DNA from: Deinococcales bacterium
GTDB taxonomy: Bacteria > Deinococcota > Deinococci > Deinococcales > JAAFIG01
DNA length: 64,000 bases
Direction: 5' to 3'
NCBI GenBank assembly: GCA_031414595.1
Contig: JANNVX010000067.1
Coordinates: forward strand, 1-64,000
The first letter of the stretch is position 1; the number at the start of each line of letters is the position of its first letter. Positions 48,169 to 61,280 of this stretch are shown here, piece by piece. Under the pieces are notes generated by a model. The model saw only the letters and a program-made list of their open reading frames with translations. It did not search any database and was not told the DNA's origin. A program made the translations under genes and the position numbers.

Positions 48169-49092
48169 ATGAGTCAAGGACTAAAAGTAGCTGTTACTGG
48201 CGCGACTGGTTATGTTGGGCATCACGTATTGCGCGAACTGCTCGAGCGTGGGCATAGCGTCACGGCACTCTCGAGAAGCGGCGCAAAATCCAGCACCGCC
48301 AGTGGAAAATCCCTAGCCACTTTTGAGAATGTCAAATACATCGGTGGCGATGTCTCGACGGCTCGTAACCTCGACACAGCCTTTGCTGGGGCGGATGTGG
48401 TGATTCATTTGGTTGGGATTATTAGCGAACATAAAGACCAGACTTTCCAGAATGTGCATGTCAACGGCACAAAAAACGTTCTCGAGGCAGCAAAAAAAGC
48501 GGGTGTCAAGCGTTACCTGCACATGAGTGCTTTGGGTGCGGCTGCCAACGCTGCCAGTGGCTACTCAAGTAGCAAATTTGCAGCAGAAGAGCTGGTGCGA
48601 GCCAGTGGTCTCGAGTATACGATTTTTCGTCCTAGCCTGATTTTTGGCGAAGGCGACGATTTCTTTGGACGGGTCTTAAAAAACCTTGTCTCGAGTGCGC
48701 CAATCGTGCCACAAATTGGCGATGGCAGTTTTCCATTCAGACCAGTCTGGGTGGGCGACGTGGCAAAATGTTTTGCCCAAGCGCTGGATATTCCCAGTAG
48801 TATCGGGCAAGTCTTTGATGTGGTGGGCAGTAAAGAATTTAGTTTTAAGGAACTGCTTAATCTCGAGATGAACGCCCTAGGAACTAAAAAACCCCTTGTT
48901 CCAGTACCGATTTTTTTAATGGATATTGGTGTGCCGCTCATGCAGATTTTGGGTTCGTTAGCACCGATTACGACCCATCAGTACGCGATGCTCAAAGCGG
49001 GGAACACCGCCGACCCAGCCCCAGTCAATGCAATGTTTAAGCTCGAGAACCGCAGTTTAGAGACCGAATTACCGAAATTACTCGGGAAGTAA
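48169..49092 (+). CDS. NAD(P)-binding protein, complex I NDUFA9-like atypical SDR
   Basis: TGATGYVG, HLVGII, HMSALGA, YSSSK, RPSLIFG and PVWVGDVA motifs. Confidence 0.9.
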   Translation: MSQGLKVAVTGATGYVGHHVLRELLERGHSVTALSRSGAKSSTASGKSLATFENVKYIGGDVSTARNLDTAFAGADVVIHLVGIISEHKDQTFQNVHVNGTKNVLEAAKKAGVKRYLHMSALGAAANAASGYSSSKFAAEELVRASGLEYTIFRPSLIFGEGDDFFGRVLKNLVSSAPIVPQIGDGSFPFRPVWVGDVAKCFAQALDIPSSIGQVFDVVGSKEFSFKELLNLEMNALGTKKPLVPVPIFLMDIGVPLMQILGSLAPITTHQYAMLKAGNTADPAPVNAMFKLENRSLETELPKLLGK

Positions 49093-52000
49093 AATAAATT
49101 CTTGCCATGAACTCGGTAGGCTTTCACCAATTTTTTGGTACTGCTCTTGTTGCACCTGATAAAAACTGTTCAGACTCGAGTCGAGACTGGCTTCAAGGGC
49201 TTGTACGTGCAGTCGCAGGGCGGGTCGCTCGAACGGGTTCATGTTTAATAAAATGCGACTGGCTCGAGTGGCTTCGGTTGGATTAATGGGCAAGCTTTGG
49301 GTGATGGCTCGGGTCAGGGCTTCAGATAGGGCTTCTTGGACACTTGGGTTAAGGCTTATTTCGTCTTCTAAGTACACGCCGCGCCAGATTGTGGTGTCCA
49401 GTGTTTCTAAGAAATCCTCGGCATCGGTACGAACGCCTAAACAATAACCAAGGGTGGTGTGTTGCACAATTTCACTGCCAAGGCTTTTGCGTAAACGATA
49501 AATCAGCTGCCGAAGAGCCGAAGCCGCTTGTTCTTCGTTTTCTTCGGGGTAGAGTGTGTCTATCATCTCGAGTTGAGTCACCATGACCCTGCCCATCAAC
49601 CGCGCCTCGAGCAGTAATGCCAGTAGTTCTCGGGCTTTTTTTAAGCGCTTAGAAATGGTTTGGGTAGCGTAGCGCATTTCGCCTAGCACCTCGAGTTTTT
49701 GAGGGTTGGTTTGAGTGGTTTGTTGTGACTGATTAAACATTTCTGGAAAGTAGCGTTTGGCAACATGAAGGGTAGAAATTGCCTCATCTCCCAATTCTTT
49801 TAATCGTCTAATCCGCAAAGCAGCCGCTTCTTTTTGCGAAAACAAATAATCAAATTCTAAAGCAAATCGTTCAAACGAAATACTTGTATCGGTATCTTCT
49901 AAGGTTTTCAGGGCTTGAATCATTTCTTGTTTTGATTCTTCTATAAAACCAAGTGCAAAACGAGTTCTTGCTCGAACCCACATGCCCTTAGCCAAGTCAC
50001 TTGTCAACTCGAGTTTTTGTGCTAATTCTATTTGTTCATCAATTAAAGTTAGTGCCACACTTGGGTCGCCATGAAGGGCTTCAATCCAAGCTATATCGGC
50101 TAAGTTACGGGCAAGTTGTGGTTTGCTGGTCAGTAATCTTTGGTAACGTAGGGCATCTTTGGTGTGTTTGCAAGCTAGAATTTCACCAAACGGCGGACTC
50201 CATTCCATGTACAAATAAGCCAGTTGTAAATGGACTGAAGTCAAGTACAACCAATCACCTGTGGCATGACTGAGTACATTTTGGGCTTCTAAGAGCAGCA
50301 ATTCAGCCCGTTCAAACTGCCCTAAGTAGGTGATGGAGCTTGCAATTGCCGCTTGTCGAATCGAATAACGAAAAGGGTCAGCTAAATCTCGCATCAGTTG
50401 CAAAGAAGTCTCGAGGTCATGCAAACCTTCTTGTTTTCGCCCTAAGTCCATACGAACCAAACCCCGATTAGAAATCAGCAATTCTTGTTCTATCCATAAG
50501 TTGCTAGATTCTTCAGGATGTTCTTGCAGTAAGTTTAGGGTTTGGGTAAATAAGGCTTCGGCTGCCGTAAATTGTCCTAGGATACGCAATCCAAGGGCTT
50601 TAACATTGAATAAACGCAAACGGGCTGAAAGTTCAACTGGGCGGCTTAAGGTTTGGTCTATCAGTTCAAATGCCTCTACTTGTCTGGACAGTTGAATCAA
50701 TGACATGGCAATACTCCAATTGACTACAGGATTTAATTGTTGTTGCAAATCTGGGTGTTGTTGCCAAATCGAAATAACCTTCTGGTAATCACCACGAATC
50801 GCTAGGAATTGCACAAATGCGGCTAGCCAAGCAACATCAAATTCTTTTTCAGGAGCAGATTTAATCAGTATTTGTTCGGCTTCATCACTGCGTCCTAAGA
50901 GTTGCAAAGCTAAACACCAACCCAAAATAAACTCTGGATTATCTGGCTCGAGACGAAAAGCAATTTCATACAATCGGGCTGATTCGGTTCGGTCAAAGGG
51001 CTTTAAGAGTTCTGCGGCTTGAAACGCCATACTACTTTTTTCTTCTAATGAAGTCAGTTGTACCGCATACGCAAAAGCGCGTCCGGCAAAATGTTTATTT
51101 CCTTTGGCGGCAGTCAGACGTGCCACTTCTAACCATACGTCAAGGGTTTGTTTTGGCTCGAGTTGTGCCGTTTCCACCAGATACTCAATGAGTTCTGGTG
51201 CAAATAAAAGGGTTGGAGCAATTAATTCTCGGGCAATGCTGATTTTTTCTTGCAACCACATTTTTGAACGCAATACTTCGGGATACAGCGGATGCACAAA
51301 TTGATTAGCCGACCAGATACCTGTGCTGAACAATTCAAGATGGTAGACATTTTGCATTTGCTCTGACCAAGTGGCAAAAACATGGTCTCTTAGGTTTGGT
51401 TGATTGGGCAACAAGGCTAAACTAAGCAGCACTTGACGTAAAATACTTGGCGCTGCTATTTGCTGGCTAATATCTTCTAAACGCTCAATAATAATCGCTT
51501 CTAAATCTTTGGGAATTGTCTGTGTTTGTATTGGTTCTTGCCAAAACCATTGTTTCTGCACTTGCCATAAAAAACCTTGGCGCAGGGCGTGTTGAAAAAA
51601 CTCGAGGGTAAAAAGTGGATTACCTAAACTGCGTTTATAAATCCAATTTATTGCATCTGGTGGTAAGGGATAAACGGCGGCGTTATTGAGTAAAGCTGTT
51701 GCTGCTTTTTGGTCAAGGGCTTGCAAAGAAAATTCTTGAAATGCAGCCGATAATGGTAAACGGCTGGTGATAATTAAACCAATGCCCTTACTTTTACCCA
51801 GCATTTGTGCCACTGTAACCCAAAGTGCCAGTTGCGCTGGGTTGGCTTCATGGGCATCCTCGAGATGCACCAGCACAGGCGACAGGGCTGTTAAATAAGT
51901 CAATACGGCTTGGGCTATAGATTTTTCGGATAGATTTTGCTGTTCTTTGAGTTGCTTAAAAACTTGTTCTGCCCAAACAGGCAAAGGTTTTGTGGCTACC

Positions 52001-52239
52001 GGTAATCGGGTGTGTAACCAATGCCAAGGTTCTGAAATTGGAATTAACACTCGAGTACAAGGGATGACACTTAGCACTTGCTCGACGGTGTGGGTTTTGC
52101 CCATGCCCGCATCTGCCACAATTGCAATGGCGGCACTGCGAAAACCCGAGGCGATTCCGTTCAGGCGCTCAAGCAACCGCCCAGCTTCGGCAGTCAGTTG
52201 CTTTTTTGAGGTGGTAGGGCTGCTTAAGTGTGTTGGCAT
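49078..52239 (-). CDS. STAND ATPase - TPR - C-terminal SARP/wHTH transcriptional activator (paralogue 1)
   Basis: Walker A ADAGMGKT, Walker B VHLEDAH, ITSR, GNPLF and FVHPLY motifs; TPR-like helices; C-terminal LEVLG...ELLALLL...DTLYP...ALRQLIYRLRKSLG...GY.L. Likely start 52239 (6 nt after TACCCT). Confidence 0.85.
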   Translation of the reverse strand: MPTHLSSPTTSKKQLTAEAGRLLERLNGIASGFRSAAIAIVADAGMGKTHTVEQVLSVIPCTRVLIPISEPWHWLHTRLPVATKPLPVWAEQVFKQLKEQQNLSEKSIAQAVLTYLTALSPVLVHLEDAHEANPAQLALWVTVAQMLGKSKGIGLIITSRLPLSAAFQEFSLQALDQKAATALLNNAAVYPLPPDAINWIYKRSLGNPLFTLEFFQHALRQGFLWQVQKQWFWQEPIQTQTIPKDLEAIIIERLEDISQQIAAPSILRQVLLSLALLPNQPNLRDHVFATWSEQMQNVYHLELFSTGIWSANQFVHPLYPEVLRSKMWLQEKISIARELIAPTLLFAPELIEYLVETAQLEPKQTLDVWLEVARLTAAKGNKHFAGRAFAYAVQLTSLEEKSSMAFQAAELLKPFDRTESARLYEIAFRLEPDNPEFILGWCLALQLLGRSDEAEQILIKSAPEKEFDVAWLAAFVQFLAIRGDYQKVISIWQQHPDLQQQLNPVVNWSIAMSLIQLSRQVEAFELIDQTLSRPVELSARLRLFNVKALGLRILGQFTAAEALFTQTLNLLQEHPEESSNLWIEQELLISNRGLVRMDLGRKQEGLHDLETSLQLMRDLADPFRYSIRQAAIASSITYLGQFERAELLLLEAQNVLSHATGDWLYLTSVHLQLAYLYMEWSPPFGEILACKHTKDALRYQRLLTSKPQLARNLADIAWIEALHGDPSVALTLIDEQIELAQKLELTSDLAKGMWVRARTRFALGFIEESKQEMIQALKTLEDTDTSISFERFALEFDYLFSQKEAAALRIRRLKELGDEAISTLHVAKRYFPEMFNQSQQTTQTNPQKLEVLGEMRYATQTISKRLKKARELLALLLEARLMGRVMVTQLEMIDTLYPEENEEQAASALRQLIYRLRKSLGSEIVQHTTLGYCLGVRTDAEDFLETLDTTIWRGVYLEDEISLNPSVQEALSEALTRAITQSLPINPTEATRASRILLNMNPFERPALRLHVQALEASLDSSLNSFYQVQQEQYQKIGESLPSSWQEFILLPE

Positions 52240-52281
52240 GTTCACAGGGTACTCCAAATTACATTTTGGGATTTTCTCGAG

Positions 52282-52319
52282 TCGGTCTCGGAGTGCAAAA
52301 TTTTGCACTCCGAGACCGA
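52282..52319. repeat. Perfect 38-bp palindrome
   Basis: TCGGTCTCGGAGTGCAAAA|TTTTGCACTCCGAGACCGA. Confidence 0.95.
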
Positions 52320-52328
52320 TAAGCCAAA

Positions 52329-54509
52329 TTACGGTTTGAACAGAGCCACAAACGAAGTGGTGTTATTTAGTGCAAAGCCATTGCCAAACGCCATTGCACT
52401 GCTGTCTGGTAAGCCAACCACACCCGTAAAAATTGAGTCAAAGCTGAGGCTGTTACTTGGATTGGTATAACCGAGTAACACTTTACCGCCCACGCCAAAG
52501 CTGCTGTCTAAACTGCCATCTTGGTTTAAGCGCACGGCTGCGAAGTCGTTGGTGTTGGCTGCACCGACCATCATAATTTTGCCATTGGCAAGCACAGTAA
52601 TGGCTCGAGGAACGTGCAGGTTGGCATTAAAGGTCACATCTATGCGCCCATCGGTATCAAAACTGGTGTCGAGGCTGCCAGTATCGGTTAGACGAACCAC
52701 ACTGTACAATTCGGTGGTGACATCACGAATCAGCATTAACAGTCTGCCTTGAGCGTCCAGAGTAACGCGGCTACGGCTATTAATCGAACTTAAATTCAGA
52801 ACAGCATTGTTGATTGCTTGGCTTTGATAAGCTGCGTCTACTGCGCCAGTTGGGAGAATACGATTCACAGTGATGGTTGAACTGGCTCCTGAATCGGAGA
52901 TGACAAGGAAGCGTCCTTGGGAATCGGTGAAAGCGATAGCTGTTTCATTTGAAAACAGACCAGGAATCGCAATTGTTTTGCGTCCGTCACCATCAAAATC
53001 AGGGTCTAAGTTGCCACCGGGAGTTAAGCGAATCAATTCGTTTTGGGTGATAAATAAGAAACGACCTAAGTCAACTTGGGCAAAACTGAGCAGATCAGAT
53101 CCAATGTTGGATGCAAACAGTTGGGTTGCACCATTTGTACCGAAACTCGAGTCCAAAGAACCATTTGGGTTCAAACGGGTAATTGCTGTATCACTAAGGA
53201 GCAAAATTTTATTGTCGGCTTGGAGTACAAATTGCACTGGAGTGACAAAACCCAGTCCAGCAGGAGGGTTAAAGGTGCTATCAAGCGTGGCATCGGCATT
53301 AAGCCTTGCAATCCCCAACGCTCCTACCGTAACCAGTATTTTCCCATCTGGTTGCCGAAGACTAATCCGACCATTGATGCTCGGTGCTGTCTTAAATCCT
53401 GCCAATGGCAAATTGCTAAAACTCGAGTCTAGGGCGTTACCGCCAATGTTTGTGGCTTTGGGTTGCTCGAACCGACTCAGTACGTTGGTGCTGACCAAAA
53501 TGGTTTGTATAATCCCGCCGCCTGTACCTTTAATTGTAAAGTTTTGAGGTCCAGAAGGGGTGTTCAAACCAGCCACCATTGACATATTGGTATTTGTACC
53601 GTTCTCGACTCGCATATCTTGTGGCACACTTTGGGCGCTAATTACCACAGGCGCAGTAAATCCAGCTTTGCGTTCGACATTAACGGTAAAATTGCTGCGG
53701 ACTTCTTGCAGAATTGGGTCTTCGATAACGGTGGTGCTGAGCTTAAAGCCTTGGGTCGTGACAGGCAAAACCGTAAGTTGCACCACGGTACTTCTGGTCA
53801 GGTTATTGGCGACACCAACCATTCTCATGGCATAGACTCCGGGCAGGGTGTTGTTGGCAAGGCTTAATGTCACCAATGAGGTGTTCTGATTGGGTGGATT
53901 GACCGTTGGGACTGGATTTTTATTAAAAACCGCACTGACCCCAAGCGGTAAATTCTCGAGGGTAAGCTGGACATTGCCGCTAAATGTGGGGTCTAGTTCT
54001 TTAACGTTAATGCCAAATTTGGCGGTAAAACCGGGTTCGGCACTAAACACATTGGGGGTTGCGGTCAGGGTGTAGACCGAACCTGTTATAGCTGGAACAA
54101 CGACATTGATATTGGTACTGACGGTGATGGTTGCGGCTTGGGGGTTTAGGCTTTTTCCGGGTATGCCATCTATCGCAACACCAAGCACTTTTAAGGGGTA
54201 TGTACCGGGAGCAACATTTTTACCGATTTTCAGGCGCACACCACAATCGCCGTTGCTCGAGTCGCGGGTCCATTCTTGTTCAAAACCAGCCGGTAAATTC
54301 TCGAAGGTCATTTGTACAAGGTTGCTAAAGCCAGCCTCACGCTCGAGCGCCACAAAACTGGTGGCATCACCACCAATTGGAATCTCGAGGCTTATTTCGG
54401 CGGGTTTGAGCTTAAAACTTGGAATAACAACAGGTGGTGGCGCAGTGTTACACGCCATGATGGTCATACCTAAAGCGAGGAGCAGACCGATTGTTTTGCT
54501 GTGTTTCAT
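52329..54509 (-). CDS. Lipoprotein with Ig-like repeats and delta-60 (beta-propeller) repeats
   Basis: Lipobox IMAC; repeated F.L...GF...V.L...NLP.G modules; multiple RL..(D/N)GSLD.SF(G/D) repeats; AAGGAG RBS. Confidence 0.85.
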   Translation of the reverse strand: MKHSKTIGLLLALGMTIMACNTAPPPVVIPSFKLKPAEISLEIPIGGDATSFVALEREAGFSNLVQMTFENLPAGFEQEWTRDSSNGDCGVRLKIGKNVAPGTYPLKVLGVAIDGIPGKSLNPQAATITVSTNINVVVPAITGSVYTLTATPNVFSAEPGFTAKFGINVKELDPTFSGNVQLTLENLPLGVSAVFNKNPVPTVNPPNQNTSLVTLSLANNTLPGVYAMRMVGVANNLTRSTVVQLTVLPVTTQGFKLSTTVIEDPILQEVRSNFTVNVERKAGFTAPVVISAQSVPQDMRVENGTNTNMSMVAGLNTPSGPQNFTIKGTGGGIIQTILVSTNVLSRFEQPKATNIGGNALDSSFSNLPLAGFKTAPSINGRISLRQPDGKILVTVGALGIARLNADATLDSTFNPPAGLGFVTPVQFVLQADNKILLLSDTAITRLNPNGSLDSSFGTNGATQLFASNIGSDLLSFAQVDLGRFLFITQNELIRLTPGGNLDPDFDGDGRKTIAIPGLFSNETAIAFTDSQGRFLVISDSGASSTITVNRILPTGAVDAAYQSQAINNAVLNLSSINSRSRVTLDAQGRLLMLIRDVTTELYSVVRLTDTGSLDTSFDTDGRIDVTFNANLHVPRAITVLANGKIMMVGAANTNDFAAVRLNQDGSLDSSFGVGGKVLLGYTNPSNSLSFDSIFTGVVGLPDSSAMAFGNGFALNNTTSFVALFKP

Positions 54510-54595
54510 AATTTTCTCCTTATTGCTAAAAACGCGAGGGTTTAAGAACGAAGTACCTGTTTTGTATCCGAACCTCCTGTGTAACGAACTTCTAA

Positions 54596-54628
54596 AGGCT
54601 AAATGGACTGTGGTAACGAGGCTGTAAC
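54596..54628 (-). promoter_or_regulatory. Direct-repeat activator box + -10 (copy 1)
   Basis: Sense strand GTTACAGCCTCGTTACC (54628-54612), 10 nt, then TAGCCT. Confidence 0.8.
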
Positions 54629-54635
54629 ATCAAAA

Positions 54636-55415
54636 CTAGAATGGGAAACTTTTAGGGTCTTTTGGATTGACAATTTTGAGAACCAACCCCAAATCAGTCA
54701 TTGTCTTTTTGTCCTCGAGCCGAGGTGCTTTTTGTACCCCCACTTGGTTAATCAGGGCAGCTTGCTGCTTGCCGTTGGGTAGTACAATCCAACCAGCCAC
54801 GGCTTTTTTTGCACTCTTGCTTTCGGCTCGGTAAAAACCAGCTTGGTCTCGAGCCAATGGAACAGCAAAGGCATACGTTCCACTTGGTAATTCAAGGCTG
54901 CCGAGTGCGTTTTGCAAATTTATTTTGGCAATTAGCCGCGCTCCGTTTTTAGACTGCAACTCGAGTGAATTGTCTAAACCGAGTGCGCCTTTGAACCATT
55001 CAGCAGTCTTTTGCCCATCACAGATGTATGCCAGTACACGCTGCTGTTGCAAGGCAATGGCAATAAAAACTGGTGATTGTGGAATTTTTCCAACATAGAC
55101 TGCCTCGAGTTGGGGTGAGGCTGGCTTGAACCACAACACGGCTGCAATCAATAAAACCGCCAAAAGGCTAAAGACACGTACATCTAATTTTTTCTGGACT
55201 GGCGTTTTGGTGATTGGTTGTGGCTCGAGTGGCAGACCGCATTGGGCGCAATTTCGGGCATAGGGCGACATGATTGGCGCTTGGCAGACTTGGCACTGCT
55301 CGAGCATTTCTGTGCCATCGTTAATACAATATCTTTCCCCGCTTTCTATCGGTACGGCTCGAGCGCAGCGCGGACAGATGCGGTATTGGGGCTGGCTGGT
55401 CACGAGTTGGCTCAT
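54636..55415 (-). CDS. Double zinc-ribbon + TM + extracytoplasmic domain protein
   Basis: CPRC...CIND...CQVC...CAQC followed by a TM helix (VFSLLAVLLIAAVLW); likely leaderless start at 55415. Confidence 0.75.
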   Translation of the reverse strand: MSQLVTSQPQYRICPRCARAVPIESGERYCINDGTEMLEQCQVCQAPIMSPYARNCAQCGLPLEPQPITKTPVQKKLDVRVFSLLAVLLIAAVLWFKPASPQLEAVYVGKIPQSPVFIAIALQQQRVLAYICDGQKTAEWFKGALGLDNSLELQSKNGARLIAKINLQNALGSLELPSGTYAFAVPLARDQAGFYRAESKSAKKAVAGWIVLPNGKQQAALINQVGVQKAPRLEDKKTMTDLGLVLKIVNPKDPKSFPF

Positions 55416-55422
55416 GGGGTTT

Positions 55423-55455
55423 AGGTTACGGGCAGGGTGGTAACGAGCCTGTAAC
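55423..55455 (-). promoter_or_regulatory. Direct-repeat activator box + -10 (copy 2)
   Basis: Sense strand GTTACAGGCTCGTTACC (55455-55439), 10 nt, TAACCT, 7 nt, ATG. Confidence 0.8.
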
Positions 55456-55491
55456 GTCTTTGTTTTTGATTTGTGGCTTAGAATTCTCGGT

Positions 55492-58449
55492 GTGTCCGAA
55501 TCCGTAGAAACCTTAAAGCAGTGCTTACAAGATTTGCCTTTGGGAAATCCCAGTTGTGCTTTGGCGTTGACAGCCGAAGCTGGCGCAGGCAAGTCTTTTG
55601 CGGTGGCAGCCTTAATGCGTGAGTTACCGTATGGTTCAATGGTTGTCCATGCCGAAATTAGCCTTAGAGATTTACCAAAGATGCTGCCTTCTCGAGCAAC
55701 ACAAAAAATACCCGTACCAGATGGCGTGGTGACATCGTTGCTGAATCACTTAAATCTGCTGAGTCCGTTTGTTTTATGGGTCGAAGATTTTCATCAAGCC
55801 AGTCCCGAACAGCAACAAATCTGGTTGGCACTCTCGAGCGCGATTATTCAAACCAAAGGGCTGGCATTGTTATTTACAACAAGGGTGGCAATGACTGCGC
55901 CTGTACAGACCTTTTTTCTCGAGCCACTTTCACCGATTCAATTAAAGTCTTTACTGGAAACCGAAGCAGGCTCGATTATCCCCGAAGCCGCGATTATCTG
56001 GATTGAAAAGCAAACCCAAGGCAATCCGCTTTTTTCCTTGGAGTATTTTAAGTGGTTAGCACGGCTGGGTTTTTTACGCAGTGATGGTCAATTTTGGCGT
56101 TGGCGTGAACCAGAGCATCGGGTTTTGCCATCAAAGTTAGACGCGCTGATAGAACAAGCCCTGATGCCCGCTTTGGTTTCTGAGCAGCAGGCGCATGTCT
56201 TGCTGGCGGCGGCATTGCTGGGTTCAAAAGTGGATTTATCGGTTTTGTCGCAAGTCACACAAAAAAGCCAAACCGAACTTAAAGAAATTTTTTTGAGACT
56301 CGAGCGATTTGGGGTTTTTAGACGTGGACAATTTGCCCATTCTCTGTACAAAGAGGTACTGCTGAACAATCCAAACATCAAAAATCGTGAATTGATAATA
56401 AAGCAAGTGCTGACTTTTTTAGCCAAGCATAATCCAATAGAAGCCACCCAAATGATGCGCTATGCCAAGTTAAACCCGACCGAACAAGGCTATTATTTTG
56501 AACAAGCCATTACCTTTGCCCTCAACTTGCCAGACCCTGTGTTAGCGGCTCGGTTGCGCCGCAAAAGCATCGAATTTGTGGATCGTTTAGCCCAAGTTCC
56601 CTTGTTGCTCGAGTCAGCCTTGTGGTTGCAACCGTATCAGCTTTCCGAAGCCTTAGAGATCACCGATTTACTGTTATCACTCGAGCCGCTCAACACGGCT
56701 AATTTGCGTCTGCGGGTGATTTTATTGGCAAAACTAGGGCGCACAACCGAGGCACAGGGGATGCTACACAGCTTGCCTTTGAAGGGGCTTAACGACTTAA
56801 TAGAACTCGAGGTTCTGGTGTTGTACCGAGGCTGCCAGTATACAAAACTGCTTGAACTCTGGCGGGTTGGCTTAGCTGCACAAGTTATTTTGCCCGCACC
56901 TTTGGCTCGAGCCGTGGCAATTGCGTTACTTTATGATTCAGAATTTGAAAAAGCCCAGCAAATTATGAGCAGAACCTCGAGCCTAACAGGTTTTGACCGA
57001 TTGGACATCTTGTTTGCCGAATTGTATCTTCCATTTACAAAGCATGACTTTGTAACCACAATCAGGGCTTGCACCGATTTTTTAGGGCAACTCGAGCCGT
57101 ACCGCAATGCCACCTTTGAATGGATTGACTTGTTGTGCGGCACATTGCATTTACGAGCTTTGGCGTACAGCGCCCTTGGTCAACCGCTCGCTGCAATTGC
57201 GGACACCACAAAAAATTTGGGCTACCTTAAACAACTTGGTCTTTTGGTTATCTATGCCCAAAGAAAGGCAGAATTGGCGTTGTACCAACTCGAGGCTGGC
57301 GAAAGCGGTTTGGCAGCCACCAACTTATTTGAAGCCAGTGAAACTTTGGATTACTCGAGCGAGCCAGTCCAGAATTGCTTTTATCATCAAACTCGAGCCA
57401 TCTATTACTTGGGCTTAGAAGATCAAAAAGCCTTGCAGATTGCCCGTTTAGCACTTCGTCATGCCCAAGAAACCGAAGAACCAAATCACATCAATCAGGC
57501 AAAACAGACCTTGGCACTGATTGAAGCCAGCCTTGGCTCTGGCGCAAAAGCCTTGGATTTAGTCTCCCAACTCGAGCCGCCACCAAGACTGACCAAAGCC
57601 ATTGCTTTGAAGCGCTTAGGGCAACCTACCGAGGCAATAGAACTACTCGAGCAAGCAGGCAACGAACCGACTGGACGTATGCAGCTTGAATTGGCTCATC
57701 TTAAAAATGACTTTGCTTTTGCCCAGAAACTCTTATTGCAATTTAATCAAAACCACCAAGGGCAACTGATTAAACTGCACCAAAAATACTTTCCTCATTC
57801 CAGCCGCCCTAAAAAACCTGCGCTGCGCGTACTGGGCGATATTTACTGGCACGATGCGCCCTTGGGTGAACGTGGACGCAAAGCCCTAGAATTATTGGTC
57901 TACTTACTCGAGGCTCGGGTAGAAAAACAGCCAGTCGTGACTTTAGAAGAATTATTCAGGGTGCTTTATCCAAATCATCAGCCCGCCGAAGCCAAAGCCG
58001 CCCTAAAACAATTGGTTTACCGAATGCGGAGTTTTCTGGGTGCAGAAACGATTTTGCACCTTGGTGATGGCTATGCTTTAGGTGCGTTTGAAACTGACCT
58101 CGAGCTATTTTTAGAACATCCACAACCCGAATTACTTTTAGGCAATTACATCAATGACCTTGGAACAGACCACCCCTCGAGCTTGCGCCAAGTTTTAACA
58201 GAAAAAATCCAGACCTTACTATCCGAAATGATGCAGCACAACCACCCTGAAACAGTCCGAATTGCCCGAATTTTACTCGAGATGAACAGCCCAGACCAAA
58301 AAAATCTAACCCTGATTCTTAAAGCTGTTCAACACGCCAAAGACCCTGTAGCAGCGATTCAAATTTATGCCCATGCCAAACAAAAACTCGAGGAAATGGG
58401 CGAGGATTTACCCGACTCTTGGCAAAAATACTTACAAGCCCAAGGCTAA
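55492..58449 (+). CDS. STAND ATPase - TPR - C-terminal SARP/wHTH transcriptional activator (paralogue 2)
   Basis: AEAGAGKS, LWVEDFH, FTTR, GNPLF and FAHSLY motifs; C-terminal LRVLG...ELLVYLLEAR...LYP...ALKQLVYRMRSFLG...GYALG. Likely GTG start 55492 (7 nt after TAGAAT). Confidence 0.85.
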   Translation: MSESVETLKQCLQDLPLGNPSCALALTAEAGAGKSFAVAALMRELPYGSMVVHAEISLRDLPKMLPSRATQKIPVPDGVVTSLLNHLNLLSPFVLWVEDFHQASPEQQQIWLALSSAIIQTKGLALLFTTRVAMTAPVQTFFLEPLSPIQLKSLLETEAGSIIPEAAIIWIEKQTQGNPLFSLEYFKWLARLGFLRSDGQFWRWREPEHRVLPSKLDALIEQALMPALVSEQQAHVLLAAALLGSKVDLSVLSQVTQKSQTELKEIFLRLERFGVFRRGQFAHSLYKEVLLNNPNIKNRELIIKQVLTFLAKHNPIEATQMMRYAKLNPTEQGYYFEQAITFALNLPDPVLAARLRRKSIEFVDRLAQVPLLLESALWLQPYQLSEALEITDLLLSLEPLNTANLRLRVILLAKLGRTTEAQGMLHSLPLKGLNDLIELEVLVLYRGCQYTKLLELWRVGLAAQVILPAPLARAVAIALLYDSEFEKAQQIMSRTSSLTGFDRLDILFAELYLPFTKHDFVTTIRACTDFLGQLEPYRNATFEWIDLLCGTLHLRALAYSALGQPLAAIADTTKNLGYLKQLGLLVIYAQRKAELALYQLEAGESGLAATNLFEASETLDYSSEPVQNCFYHQTRAIYYLGLEDQKALQIARLALRHAQETEEPNHINQAKQTLALIEASLGSGAKALDLVSQLEPPPRLTKAIALKRLGQPTEAIELLEQAGNEPTGRMQLELAHLKNDFAFAQKLLLQFNQNHQGQLIKLHQKYFPHSSRPKKPALRVLGDIYWHDAPLGERGRKALELLVYLLEARVEKQPVVTLEELFRVLYPNHQPAEAKAALKQLVYRMRSFLGAETILHLGDGYALGAFETDLELFLEHPQPELLLGNYINDLGTDHPSSLRQVLTEKIQTLLSEMMQHNHPETVRIARILLEMNSPDQKNLTLILKAVQHAKDPVAAIQIYAHAKQKLEEMGEDLPDSWQKYLQAQG

Positions 58450-58451
58450 AC

Positions 58452-58484
58452 GTTACAGCCTCGTTACCAGTCCTAGCGCAAGCT
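58452..58484 (+). promoter_or_regulatory. Direct-repeat activator box + -10 (copy 3)
   Basis: GTTACAGCCTCGTTACC (58452-58468), 10 nt, then CAAGCT. Confidence 0.8.
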
Positions 58485-58508
58485 GTTGGAGAAAGGAAAG
58501 GAGCGAGT

Positions 58509-58637
58509 ATGAAAAAACGGTTTTGGCTTCTGGCATTGCTGGTTGCAGCACTAATCACCGCTTGTCCAAGTCCTCCACCAGCCGTGGCTGATGGCACTTG
58601 GGGAGAATCAAATTGGGGACAGGCTAACTGGAGGTAA
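58509..58637 (+). CDS. 42-aa mini-lipoprotein with Trp repeats
   Basis: AAGGAG RBS; MKKRFWLLALLVAALITA-C lipobox; mature part PSPPPAVADGTWGESNWGQANWR. Confidence 0.75.
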   Translation: MKKRFWLLALLVAALITACPSPPPAVADGTWGESNWGQANWR

Positions 58638-58639
58638 TT

Positions 58640-59533
58640 ATGAAAAACATTGTAAAGAACTGGGCAATTGGATTTGGGATAGGAATTTCTGGACTTGGCG
58701 TAGCTGCCGTGACACTGCCACACACTTTTTTACCAGGAACACCGATTAAATCGGCGGACATGAACGCCCAATTTTTAGAAATCAGCAAAGCCATTAACAG
58801 CCTCGAGACCCAACTCAATACAGTCAAAGGTTCGGTTACGACCCTCGAGACAGGTAAGCAAAAACGAGTTACTGGAACGTGTACCATCGGCTCGAGTATC
58901 CGCACCATAGATGCCGAAGGTAATGTCGAATGCGAACTGGACGATATTGGCGGCAATGGCGGTAGTTTCTCGGCAGGCGCGGGTTTGAATTTTACAAATA
59001 ATGTTTTTTCGGTAGCCGATGCTGGAATTACCACTTCTAAATTAGCCGACAGTAGTGTCAATGCCGCTAAAATTGCCGATGAACCAGCCGTTGCCCAAAG
59101 CATAGACACCGATGGTCACGGCACAATGGCACAAGGGCAAATTATTATTCTCGAGCAAGTCACGGTTCAAGCTCCAGCCAATGGTTTTGTACTGGTGATT
59201 GGTTCAACCCAAGTCGGTATTGTTGCCACCACCAATTCATTCCCAGCCGCCGCTTTTGGAGTTTCTAAATCACCAACCAGCATGGATAACGAACAAGTAA
59301 AGTTTGTATCTGCCCCACCAGTCGCTGCCAATGCCAACAATAATTCGGTTTTCCAAACGGTCTCGAATCAAAAAATCTTTGCGGTCAATGCAGGGGCAAA
59401 CACCTTTTATTTACTAGGAAGCCGTCAAGTGAGTACCCCTGTCAGCAGTAAAAAAGAAACTTTGTCGGCTGTTTTTATCCCCTCGAGTATGGGAACAGTT
59501 GAAGAAATTGACCTCGGCACGCCACCGATTTAA
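58640..59533 (+). CDS. Secreted fibre/adhesin-like protein
   Basis: GGAGG RBS, signal-like N-terminus, TF.PGTPI.S..MN..F motif, coiled coil, C..GSSIR.I...G.V.C module, and IT..KLAD..V...KIAD repeats. Confidence 0.7.
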   Translation: MKNIVKNWAIGFGIGISGLGVAAVTLPHTFLPGTPIKSADMNAQFLEISKAINSLETQLNTVKGSVTTLETGKQKRVTGTCTIGSSIRTIDAEGNVECELDDIGGNGGSFSAGAGLNFTNNVFSVADAGITTSKLADSSVNAAKIADEPAVAQSIDTDGHGTMAQGQIIILEQVTVQAPANGFVLVIGSTQVGIVATTNSFPAAAFGVSKSPTSMDNEQVKFVSAPPVAANANNNSVFQTVSNQKIFAVNAGANTFYLLGSRQVSTPVSSKKETLSAVFIPSSMGTVEEIDLGTPPI

Positions 59534-59637
59534 GTATCTCACACCTCCATTTTAGAATCTTCAAAATGCGGCAATTCTGTTCTTGCTTATAAGATAGCAC
59601 CTCACGGGCTATTCGCGCTCATTTCGGTGTGAGATAC
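59534..59637. mobile_element. 104-bp MITE-like element with 12-bp terminal inverted repeats
   Basis: GTATCTCACACC (59534-59545) ... GGTGTGAGATAC (59626-59637); contains the 42-bp repeat also found at 24485. Confidence 0.6.
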
Positions 59638-59748
59638 GCCTAAATTGCCTCGGTATAAAACGACTCGAGCAACCCCAGTTTTTTCTCATGGGTATGAACC
59701 CACGCCATCAGTTCAATATAATCCAACAGCAACGATAGGAGGTACATT

Positions 59749-60510
59749 ATGAAACGGTACTTATTCCCACTTGGCTTCTTGCTGATAATTGGTTGTGCGC
59801 CCGCCAACAGCACCACTAGCGCCCCAACAGTGATAAAAGGTTCAGGTGACATTACAAGTACCATCGAACAATACCGTCAATTGCTTGGCGGTATAGATAA
59901 CAACGGAGAACCAGGCTCGAGAAGCACAGGATACCGAGAAATAAACTGGGATAGCTTGCCCAACGAACTGTCAGCTCCCAATTTTTACACCCCAGATTTC
60001 TTTAATGCCTCCACAGCCCCTCGAGCCAGAGGCGCAGTTCTCAGTACCCCAGGAAAAGGTTTAATGGTTAGCGCCAGCAATAACAATCCGACTGGCACAT
60101 TGCCAAGATTTGGAAACATCAACCCAACCTATGTCAATAGTTTTAAGACCTTTAGCAGCGAACGCTTATTTTCACCAATTGGTAGTAACATTGCCGAAAT
60201 TCGTTTTTATGTACCAGGAACAAATACCCCAGCCGCCGTGCAAGGTTTTGGGGCGGTTTACACTGATGTGGACACTGACCATACTGCCTTTGAGTATTTT
60301 GATATTAAAGGTAATCTACTCGGTTCTTTTGCAACGCCAATTGCCGACAATGGACTATCGTTTCTAGGTGTAGTTTTTAAGCAAGCAATTGTTCATAAAG
60401 TACGAATTCAGTATGGTACTGCCGCATTAGGAGCGGATGACAGTCTAAGCAATGATGTTGCAGTTATGGATAATTTTGTCTACGGCGAACCAAAAGCCAT
60501 TCAGCCATAA
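59749..60510 (+). CDS. Hypothetical lipoprotein
   Basis: AGGAGG RBS, lipobox IIGC; REINWD, GFGAVYTDVD and MDNFVYGEP motifs. Confidence 0.8.
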   Translation: MKRYLFPLGFLLIIGCAPANSTTSAPTVIKGSGDITSTIEQYRQLLGGIDNNGEPGSRSTGYREINWDSLPNELSAPNFYTPDFFNASTAPRARGAVLSTPGKGLMVSASNNNPTGTLPRFGNINPTYVNSFKTFSSERLFSPIGSNIAEIRFYVPGTNTPAAVQGFGAVYTDVDTDHTAFEYFDIKGNLLGSFATPIADNGLSFLGVVFKQAIVHKVRIQYGTAALGADDSLSNDVAVMDNFVYGEPKAIQP

Positions 60511-60565
60511 CATGAAGATGTTCCCCTTGAAAATCTGCTCGAGAGGTCTTGGCATTATAATTCAA

Positions 60566-61192
60566 TCAAGCCATCAATGACAAAGAACCCGTCACGGCTG
60601 CCAGAATTTTTTCATGGATTACATCGGCGGTTTGGGTTGCATCCAAAACCAAGAAACGTTCTGGTTCGGCTCTGGCTAACTCGAGAAACCCAGCCCTGAC
60701 TTTTTGATGAAACCCCAAATCAGCTTGCTCGAGTCGGTCTGGAGTACCAACTCTAGCAGCCCGTTCTAAGCCCAGTTTCGGCTCGAGGTCAAGCAGTACG
60801 GTTACATGTGGGCGAAGTCCGCCCGTGGCTTCCCAAGTCACTTCACGCAGAAAATCCAGGTTTAAGCCCCGCCCAAAACCTTGATAGGCAAGGCTCGAGT
60901 CAAAGAATCGGTCACAAATCACCACATAATTACCAGCTAAATTTGGCACGATGATGTCTCTACAAAGTTGCGCTCTGGAAGCACTGAACAGTAAAAATTC
61001 AGATAAAGCTGTAATCTCGAGGTCTGGATTGAGCAAAGCCGCCCGCACTGCATCACCCAGAGGTGTTCCACCCGGTTCTCGAGTCAGTAGCACCGCATAA
61101 CCCGCCCGTTCTAAGGCAGCTTTTAAGAGTTTGGTTTGGGTGCTTTTGCCAGCCCCTTCAGGTCCTTCAAATGTAATAAAAACACCGGGCAT
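60566..61192 (-). CDS. tmk: Thymidylate kinase
   Basis: FITFEGPEGAGKSTQ, TREPGGT and CDRFFDSSLAYQG motifs. Confidence 0.97.
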   Translation of the reverse strand: MPGVFITFEGPEGAGKSTQTKLLKAALERAGYAVLLTREPGGTPLGDAVRAALLNPDLEITALSEFLLFSASRAQLCRDIIVPNLAGNYVVICDRFFDSSLAYQGFGRGLNLDFLREVTWEATGGLRPHVTVLLDLEPKLGLERAARVGTPDRLEQADLGFHQKVRAGFLELARAEPERFLVLDATQTADVIHEKILAAVTGSLSLMA

Positions 61193-61280
61193 GTTGTCCT
61201 TTTTGTGCAGCGCAAAAAGATACCACACAGGCAAGTGTAACGTTTCGTTTTTGGATAAACCATGTCAGAATGAAAATGTT

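Follow-up and report, generated by a model that had tools for sequence, protein, structure and literature searches.

Three direct-repeat boxes in a cluster of regulator and lipoprotein genes

The window analysed here is a stretch of 64,000 nucleotides from a metagenome-assembled Deinococcales genome (contig C67 of the source assembly G000, which comprises 4.49 Mb in 120 contigs), and our subject is a 17-bp direct-repeat element, GTTACAGSCTCGTTACC, of which the window carries three copies, referred to as boxes 1 to 3. The boxes sit inside an 11.4-kb cluster (49078-60510) that encodes two large putative regulators, P0001 and P0002, together with the predicted target genes of the boxes; the edges of the cluster are convergent housekeeping genes, an epimerase gene ending at 49092 and a thymidylate kinase gene starting at 61234.

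Box 1 (54607-54628, minus strand; 17-mer at 54612-54628) consists of two 11-bp direct repeats, GTTACAGCCTC and GTTACCACAGT, and is followed 10 nt after the 17-mer by the -10-like hexamer TAGCCT (54596-54601, minus strand); transcription is predicted to start near 54589, with a leader of about 80 nt and AAGGAG ahead of the ATG at 54509. Box 2 (55434-55455, minus strand; 17-mer at 55439-55455; repeats GTTACAGGCTC and GTTACCACCCT) is followed by TAACCT (55423-55428, minus strand), which stands 7 nt before the ATG at 55415 in a leaderless layout. Box 3 (58452-58473, plus strand; 17-mer at 58452-58468; repeats GTTACAGCCTC and GTTACCAGTCC) begins 2 nt past the stop codon of P0001; its -10-like hexamer, by sequence reading, is CAAGCT (58479-58484, plus strand), and the predicted start near 58491 would leave a short leader with AAGGAG ahead of the ATG at 58509.

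A preliminary description of this DNA had reported three near-identical copies, each facing its downstream gene, built as GTTAC-N6-GTTAC with an 11-bp period and followed at 10 nt by the hexamers given above, and all of these features were borne out. A scan of the window allowing up to two mismatches returned three matches to the 17-mer, each with none, against a chance expectation of 0.02, and three copies were reached in none of 100 shuffles; a motif-blind repeat finder recovered the same three copies, lengthened to 18-22 nt (D8, I1 and I3). The pattern GTTAC-N6-GTTACC with its 11-bp period, the distance of exactly 10 nt from 17-mer to hexamer and the orientation toward the box's own downstream gene were found in 3/3 boxes, and the flanks of the three boxes are unrelated to one another.

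The hexamers share 3 to 4 of 6 positions with TATAAT, and at none of the three promoters did a sigma-70 consensus scan call a -35/-10 pair. The preliminary description had also offered an alternative-sigma promoter, with GTTAC as a -35-like element, and a conserved element whose distance from a -10-like hexamer is fixed does resemble a sigma-specific promoter as well. The spacing misfits, however, since the gap to the hexamer is 10 nt from the 3' GTTACC and 21-22 nt from the 5' GTTAC, against 16-18 nt for the sigma-70 family. Further, the element is a tandem duplication, unlike a -35; the motif varies with the neighbouring regulator paralog, as described below; and the open reading frames scanned between 39.8 and 62.8 kb include no gene for a sigma or anti-sigma factor. 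We regard this reading as very improbable.

Box 1 precedes target gene 1 (52329-54509, minus strand), which encodes a 726-aa lipoprotein with a signal peptide and Cys and with DUF5122 beta-propeller repeats. This gene lies upstream of, and is probably cotranscribed with, the gene for the second regulator, P0002 (49078-52308, minus strand; 1076 aa as listed), in which AAA_22, TPR, a weak Trans_reg_C and a C-terminal SARP domain were recognised. Target gene 2, behind box 2 (54636-55415, minus strand), encodes a protein of 259 aa with an N-terminal double zinc ribbon containing CINDG, one membrane segment and an outer domain. Behind box 3 lie target gene 3a (58509-58637, plus strand), for a 42-aa lipoprotein-like peptide beginning MKKRFWLLALLVAALITAC, and target gene 3b (58640-59533, plus strand), for a 297-aa membrane-anchored protein with no Pfam match. 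The box 3 unit may end with a gene for a 253-aa lipoprotein (59749-60510, plus strand), which lacks its own box here, although its relatives in the related genomes G008 and G012 do (L096:1234 and L089:6017). The predicted regulon would comprise three local transcription units, all coding for envelope proteins. Target genes of the same kinds recur in distant loci: a zinc-ribbon gene and genes for two lipoproteins, one of 738-804 aa and the other of about 255 aa and similar to that at 59749-60510; the counterparts of target gene 1 (738-804 aa) are box-driven in G014, G012, G018, G013 and G010. No Rfam family reached its gathering score in 49000-60600. A look-up of sequencing runs that contain this DNA gave 13 DNA entries and no RNA entry.

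P0001 itself (985 aa; 55492-58449, plus strand) unites a probable P-loop ATPase of the STAND type, whose Walker A is GAGKS, with TPR and a SARP domain at the C-terminus. Its probable leaderless promoter is TAGAAT (55479-55484, plus strand), 7 nt before the GTG start; in the G014 ortholog, with which the N-termini align, TAAGCT stands 6 nt before the same GTG. Relative to this promoter box 2 occupies -37 to -58, in the opposite orientation.

The regulators end in a SARP-type DNA-binding domain

The SARP domain of P0001 covers about residues 776-985 (57817-58446, plus strand) and reads as an OmpR-type winged helix, with the recognition helix LKQLVYRMR, followed by a helical BTAD; the recognition helix of P0002 is LRQLIYRLR. 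A profile built from 15 C-terminal domains of the source and related genomes (A1) matched the AfsR chains 8hvr_I (E 9.4e-8), 8k60_I and 8jke_I (about 1e-6; to 1.2e-6) and EmbR 2fez (E 0.003), and AfsR and EmbR were the only matches at E up to 1. An AF2 model of the domain, computed on the A1 alignment, had a pLDDT of 90.6, and AfsR and EmbR account for its top six matches in a Foldseek search of the PDB (243-254 aligned columns, E 1e-5 to 3e-4), the seventh falling to E 0.04. Sequence identity to AfsR is about 20-23%, and a 48%-identical homolog is labelled 'DNA-binding SARP family transcriptional activator' by JGI. From the A1 profile and the fold model together, the last approximately 210 residues are therefore a SARP domain, with OmpR-type winged helix and BTAD, and the C-termini of both P0001 and P0002 fall within the definition of a SARP DNA-binding domain. 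Used as a single sequence against the PDB, the P0001 C-terminus found AfsR at E 0.5 only, and a single-sequence search with full-length P0001 gave no match at E up to 0.1. A word-based homolog search returned 7 proteins only, which says little on distribution; Atlas clusters contain similar large AAA_16/BTAD proteins in other phyla.

The N-terminal 420 residues contain GAGKS and an invariant acidic Walker B-like motif, hhhhED. AAA_16 matches 13/13 aligned N-terminal members, and the N-terminal profile matches the archaeal STAND protein PH0952 (6mfv) at E 6e-4. The order of domains in P0001 is AAA_16 (10-120), TPR (approximately 385-730) and SARP (approximately 776-985). Neither P0001 nor P0002 matched Response_reg, so that both lack the receiver domain of an OmpR/PhoB regulator.

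Register of the boxes compared with the afs box

If the A of the leaderless ATG at 55415 is taken as +1, box 2 spans -40 to -19. The promoter would then read GTTACAGGCTC (-40 to -30), GTTACCACCCT (-29 to -19), GCCCG, TAACCT (-13 to -8), AAACCCC and ATG, a count of 11 + 11 + 5 + 6 + 7 = 40 nt ahead of the A. The afs box is described as two 11-bp direct repeats at -40 to -19, where the AfsR dimer extends over the -35 region next to a poor -10, and SARP promoters in general have an 11-bp period and 8 bp between the 3' repeat and the -10 (available text of PMC10936776). Here the gap is 9-10 nt between a 3' repeat of 7 or 6 nt and the hexamer. Given the predicted start, the register of box 2 is that of the afs box to the base and agrees with the solved complex of AfsR and RNA polymerase, and the site would have the features of a SARP target, namely 11-bp-period direct repeats over the -35 region and close to the -10. 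Leaderless mRNAs are common in Deinococcus (PMC4007540, in part).

Occurrence in the source genome

In the entire 4.49-Mb assembly the full 17-mer occurs at the three cluster sites only. The bare pattern GTTAC-N6-GTTAC has 8 matches in the assembly, which is approximately the chance level, and it is therefore by their full sequence and context, not by the bare pattern, that the cluster copies stand out.

The chance-level frequency of the bare pattern would also suit the view that the repeats are non-functional, either chance or recently copied sequence. Against that view, three exact 17-mers were found where 0.02 were expected, their flanks are unrelated, and half-sites and -10 have been kept in place in orthologs down to 31% protein identity (see below) where the surroundings diverge; we consider a non-functional origin extremely improbable.

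Scans of G000 for a wider regulon, with relaxed half-sites, spacer controls and -10 anchoring, gave nothing convincing beyond the three boxes. The claim that a regulon can be read directly from the sequence accordingly holds for three local promoters and not for a genome-wide set. The best extra match, C100:46088, was rejected as antisense sequence within a coding region; C88:54798 lies inside the coding region of a gene that looks fabZ-like from sequence (no family search was run on it), and a GTTAC-N6-GTTAC match on C93 lacks the trailing C. The match on C57 was set aside as a promoter remnant and those on C90 and C119 as members of other classes.

At the C57 site (G000:C57:13338-13354, plus strand) the box is followed by TAAACA and then by an ATG with only seven codons. 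The counterpart of this promoter in G003 drives a 724-aa protein (L083:4484-2313) whose N-terminus appears SARP-like by eye, and for this reason the copy in G000 looks like the remnant of a lost regulator gene. At the C90 site (G000:C90:1846-1862, minus strand), GTTACCTGTGCGTTACC stands just 5 nt ahead of TAGACT, which is followed by a leaderless gene for an ABC-ATPase; G001, G004 and G005 retain this site with 0-1 change, and its 5-nt spacing fits neither box class.

Conservation in related genomes

Comparison was extended to a family set of 19 genomes, the source and 18 others (G and L numbers label genomes and loci). Relatives of P0001 were found in 18/18 of the other genomes, with 3 to 23 matches each (matches, not copy numbers). 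The orthologous cluster of G005 has kept all three boxes. In G014, where identity is 50%, GTAACAGCCGCGTTACC-N10-TACGCT precedes the zinc-ribbon gene and GTTACTGGTACGTTACC-N10-TAACTT the beta-propeller gene, and in G004 and G006 (37-38%) the zinc-ribbon gene is preceded by ATAACAGCAACGTTACT-N10-TAAGCT or TAGGCT. Alignment of eight zinc-ribbon-gene promoters, whose regulators are 31-92% identical to P0001, leaves 12 invariant columns only: the 5' repeat contributes T-AC and G, the 3' repeat CGTTAC, and the -10 its A2 and T6.

Searching the 19 genomes for GTTAC-N6-GTTACC gave 86 matches, of which 84 were re-fetched (the omitted two, in G001:C57, are orthologs of boxes 1 and 2). Twenty-one of the 84 lie within 5 kb of a STAND-SARP gene, and all 21 (19/19 distinct sequences) have nAnnnT at exactly N10, as against at most 1/21 at each of N6-9 and N11-13; position 11 is C in 19/19 distinct sequences. 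A further 13 of the 84 are linked to response-regulator genes and have the hexamer at N9 in 13/13. Among the other 50 matches nAnnnT occurs at N10 in 16, versus 0-7 at other spacings, and several of these N10 matches are on short contigs and match boxes of known clusters.

This register also bears on the direction of regulation. SARP-domain regulators might bind the boxes as repressors and keep RNA polymerase off the sequence upstream of the -10. In favour of this, the site overlaps the stretch that polymerase covers, the -10 alone might suffice in Deinococcus, where promoters lacking a -35 are normal, and box 2 adjoins P0001's own promoter. A strict one-base register to the -10 (21/21) is nevertheless typical of a protein that touches the polymerase, whereas occlusion would tolerate variation; the -10 hexamers are poor, with 3 to 4 of 6 matches to TATAAT; and the characterised SARPs named in the available parts of the SARP literature are activators (PMC10936776, PMC10972967). 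Repression is, in our estimate, distinctly unlikely.

Box sequence varies with the recognition helix

For 37 regulators of the fetched loci, the SARP domains were aligned and the recognition helices compared with the boxes nearby. The helix QL[VI]YR[LMV]R is present in 14/37, P0001 and P0002 among them, and 13 of the 14 have a GTTAC-type box within 5 kb, the 14th being alone on a 3.3-kb contig. Regulators with the helix I[RH]G[TI]R are accompanied at 4/4 loci by a different class of site, CTGAC[CT]-N5-CTGACC-N10-[CG]AnnnT (8 sites), and in these loci (L117, L121, L122 and L129) the first CTGACC-class box begins no more than 16 nt past the regulator stop codon, the place of box 3 in the window; the other 17 loci have no CTGACC-class site with a -10. 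The helix FKIR pairs with GTTGAC/GTTTAC and YQ[LI]R with CCGAC/CTGAC, again at N10.

Conversely, the 23 regulators with other helices (20 loci, up to one mismatch) gave two GTTAC hits with nAnnnT, neither with the CGTTACC signature; these hits, L121:2684 and L134:2082, were taken as chance, the expectation being about one by our own estimate, and a third such one-mismatch hit lies within a coding region. Within the 19 genomes, the GTTAC boxes near STAND-SARP regulators occur only beside those with a YRxR helix. The sequence of the box shifts with the neighbouring regulator and its geometry stays fixed, which fits the prediction of cognate binding.

The same geometry is seen in loci where a gene for a zinc-ribbon protein with CINDG adjoins the regulator. 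In 11 of 15 such loci the gene has an upstream periodic repeat, with at most one mismatch between halves, at N10 from nAnnnT, where shuffles give 2.5/15; the remaining 4/15 have two mismatches in the 5' half.

Two of the CTGACC-class loci also carry an 11-bp-period repeat of another sequence, TTTGAGA-N4-TTTGAGA, with -10-like hexamers on both sides (L117:8501-8517 and L122:1126-1142).

A response regulator that shares the half-site

OmpR/PhoB proteins bind 11-bp-period direct repeats adjoining the -10 (pho boxes), and such a protein might be the main reader of the boxes, with the STAND-SARP genes as mere targets. The source genome holds a candidate on contig C119 (G000:C119:9210-8551). The gene for this OmpR-type response regulator has a box of its own, GTTACTCGCCTGTTACC (C119:9232-9248, minus strand), with the -10 CATACT at N9 and a leaderless ATG, and the recognition helix of its product, VKVTVYRLR, shares its YRLR with P0002 and, but for one residue, with P0001 (YRMR); the arrangement recurs in 13/84 of the re-fetched matches. 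That the same half-site precedes a response-regulator gene whose helix also reads YRLR counts against assigning the boxes to SARP regulators, as another protein could therefore read them.

The two sets of sites differ in detail, however. The -10 lies at N9 in 13/13 response-regulator-linked boxes but at N10 in 21/21 SARP-linked ones, and position 11, which is C in 19/19 distinct SARP-linked sites, is divided between C (6) and T (5) in the 11 response-regulator-linked ones. Nor would one global response regulator explain boxes specific to a paralog, such as CTGACC beside I[RH]G[TI]R in 4/4 loci. We therefore hold control of the boxes mainly by an OmpR/PhoB-family regulator to be unlikely.

The C119 arrangement is also present in G001, G003 and G004; six genomes of another genus have it together with a second box, which is divergent.

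Proposed mechanism

We consider it likely that the boxes are operator sites for the cluster's own STAND ATPase-TPR-SARP regulators, whose SARP domains would bind in tandem and recruit RNA polymerase. Each 11-bp repeat (GTTACAGSCTC and GTTACCNNNNN) would take up one SARP domain, and the two domains, adjacent and on one face of the DNA, would cover approximately -40 to -19, where region 4 of sigma would otherwise meet the -35 element. The pair would recruit RNA polymerase to weak -10 hexamers, as AfsR does on the afsS promoter, and the ATPase and TPR parts would gate the activity of the SARP domains in response to a signal. One predicted unit would yield the zinc-ribbon membrane protein (box 2) and another the beta-propeller lipoprotein with P0002 (box 1), which would close a positive loop; the third would yield the 42-aa lipoprotein and the 297-aa membrane protein, perhaps with the 253-aa lipoprotein (box 3). 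P0001 probably acts at the boxes, and P0002 probably does so too.

The proposal in the preliminary description that the box is an activator site in place of the -35 element is therefore supported computationally, by the SARP regulators in the cluster, the afs-box register, the invariant N10 and the covariation of helix and box. That SARP domains bind the boxes, that they activate there rather than repress, and which regulator acts are points that we infer from the co-location of regulators and boxes and from this covariation.

Several results pull the other way. Pfam Trans_reg_C and BTAD each see 1/15 members of the C-terminal family, below cut-off, and AAA_16 on P0001 alone is under its cut-off as well (26.3 versus 32.6 bits). 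A spacer of 6 is not favoured in G000, where it gives 13 matches and spacers of 2-11 give 4-15, and across the 19 genomes GTTAC-N6-GTTACC is not enriched, with 86 matches, as many as the reversed control gave. As the related genomes are kin and several of the loci orthologous, the counts are not independent and overstate the support. No recognisable box was found at the other two full-length paralogs of G000, on contigs C18 and C15: the sole GTTAC-type match at the C15 paralog has 1 mismatch and is inside the regulator's own coding region, and the surroundings of both contain no other recognisable periodic repeat. Finally, the available text of the Deinococcus deserti study reports that no conserved -35 motif was found there (PMC4007540). 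Promoters without a recognisable -35 being the rule in Deinococcus, the absence of a -35 at the boxes is weak evidence for dependence on an activator, weaker than the like would be in E. coli.

Relation to known systems

SARP activators have been studied almost only in Streptomyces, as switches of antibiotic genes. The regulators described here resemble AfsR and other SARPs in the module of OmpR-type winged helix and BTAD and in their sites, two 11-bp direct repeats at -40 to -19, over the -35 region and beside a weak -10. As in AfsR, TPR and probably a STAND ATPase are present and the regulator gene is beside its targets. They differ from AfsR in the half-site, which here is GTTAC, and are only about 20-23% identical to it. 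The order of domains differs too: the large SARPs have the SARP domain at the N-terminus, an NB-ARC/NOD in the centre and C-terminal TPR (available text of a 2024 review, PMC10972967), that is, SARP-ATPase-TPR as in AfsR, whereas the order here is ATPase-TPR-SARP, and P0001 and P0002 are therefore not large SARPs as that text defines them. In the same text SARPs are described as exclusive to actinobacteria (PMC10972967). Unlike the family as published, which has actinobacterial hosts and controls secondary-metabolite genes, the host here belongs to the Deinococcales, and in place of antibiotic genes the predicted targets encode lipoproteins and a zinc-ribbon protein.

With PhoB/OmpR and the pho box the regulators share a winged helix on 11-bp-period tandem repeats directly upstream of the -10, and a true OmpR-type regulator of G000 uses the same GTTAC half-site; they differ in that P0001 and P0002 lack a receiver, continue from the winged helix into a BTAD and are linked to N10, as against the N9 of response regulators in this lineage. 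MalT and other STAND activators are large P-loop STAND ATPases in which a repeat sensor arm is combined with DNA binding at the C-terminus, a plan that the regulators here appear to share, but the output domain here is SARP, not LuxR-type, and the sites are direct repeats abutting the -10. Within Deinococcus, Deide_19260 of Deinococcus deserti is described as a COG3947-type response regulator with a C-terminal SARP domain (excerpt of PMC3564903). It is thus also a signalling protein with this domain at its C-terminus, although on that description its input is a CheY-like receiver and not a STAND ATPase with TPR, and the excerpt gives neither a target nor a binding site for it. A literature search of limited extent returned no description of such regulators or sites in Deinococcota.

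SARP-type direct-repeat promoter architecture is a known kind, tandem winged-helix sites abutting the -10 being textbook, and no new regulatory principle is involved. What is new here is the reverse domain order, the other phylum, the envelope targets and a readable relation of helix to box across a large paralog family.

A possible family of modules

Taken jointly, the results suggest a broader reading. An uncultured Deinococcales family would have expanded regulators with the reverse order STAND ATPase-TPR-SARP (3-23 matches per genome), each copy forming a module of regulator, CINDG zinc-ribbon protein as first target and secreted lipoproteins, with its own 11-bp direct-repeat box in the afs-box register, and the box would be predictable from four recognition-helix residues (YRxR for GTTAC, I[RH]G[TI]R for CTGAC). 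We judge this wider reading about equally likely to stand or to fall. If true, it would be the first SARP regulon outside actinobacteria, would supply a naturally occurring recognition code for the winged helices of SARPs and would be a sign that activation by 'sigma adaptation' is old and widespread. Many paralogs, each with an adjacent box, offer a ready table of recognition helix versus half-site, and small regulons of uncultured bacteria may become readable directly from sequence.

The CINDG double-zinc-ribbon signature is Y-x-x-C-x-x-C...CINDG...C-x-x-C. In the window and in 15 related loci the gene that carries it adjoins a STAND-SARP regulator gene and lies behind a box. In most loci the zinc-ribbon protein is soluble, with 72-98 aa; the version in the window and those in its close orthologs have a membrane segment and an outer domain fused to the ribbon. 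The zinc-ribbon protein might be a signalling partner of the regulator; a complex prediction with residues 1-775 of P0001 and residues 1-70 of the zinc-ribbon protein scored 0.00, which is no evidence either way.

In G005:C751 (L002/L115) a 92%-identical ortholog of P0001 is split by one TAA into open reading frames of 742 and 260 aa with the three boxes intact; the TAA could mark a pseudogene, a strain variant or an assembly error.

A third CGTTACA lies at 54575-54581 (minus strand), about 10 nt downstream of the box 1 -10 and within the predicted leader. The near-identical copies in G005 and G001 share it and G014 does not; it is probably incidental.

The hexamer CTCGAG occurs 23,235 times in the 4.49 Mb of the source assembly, against approximately 972 expected from base composition, and is visible throughout 54300-58800 of the window.

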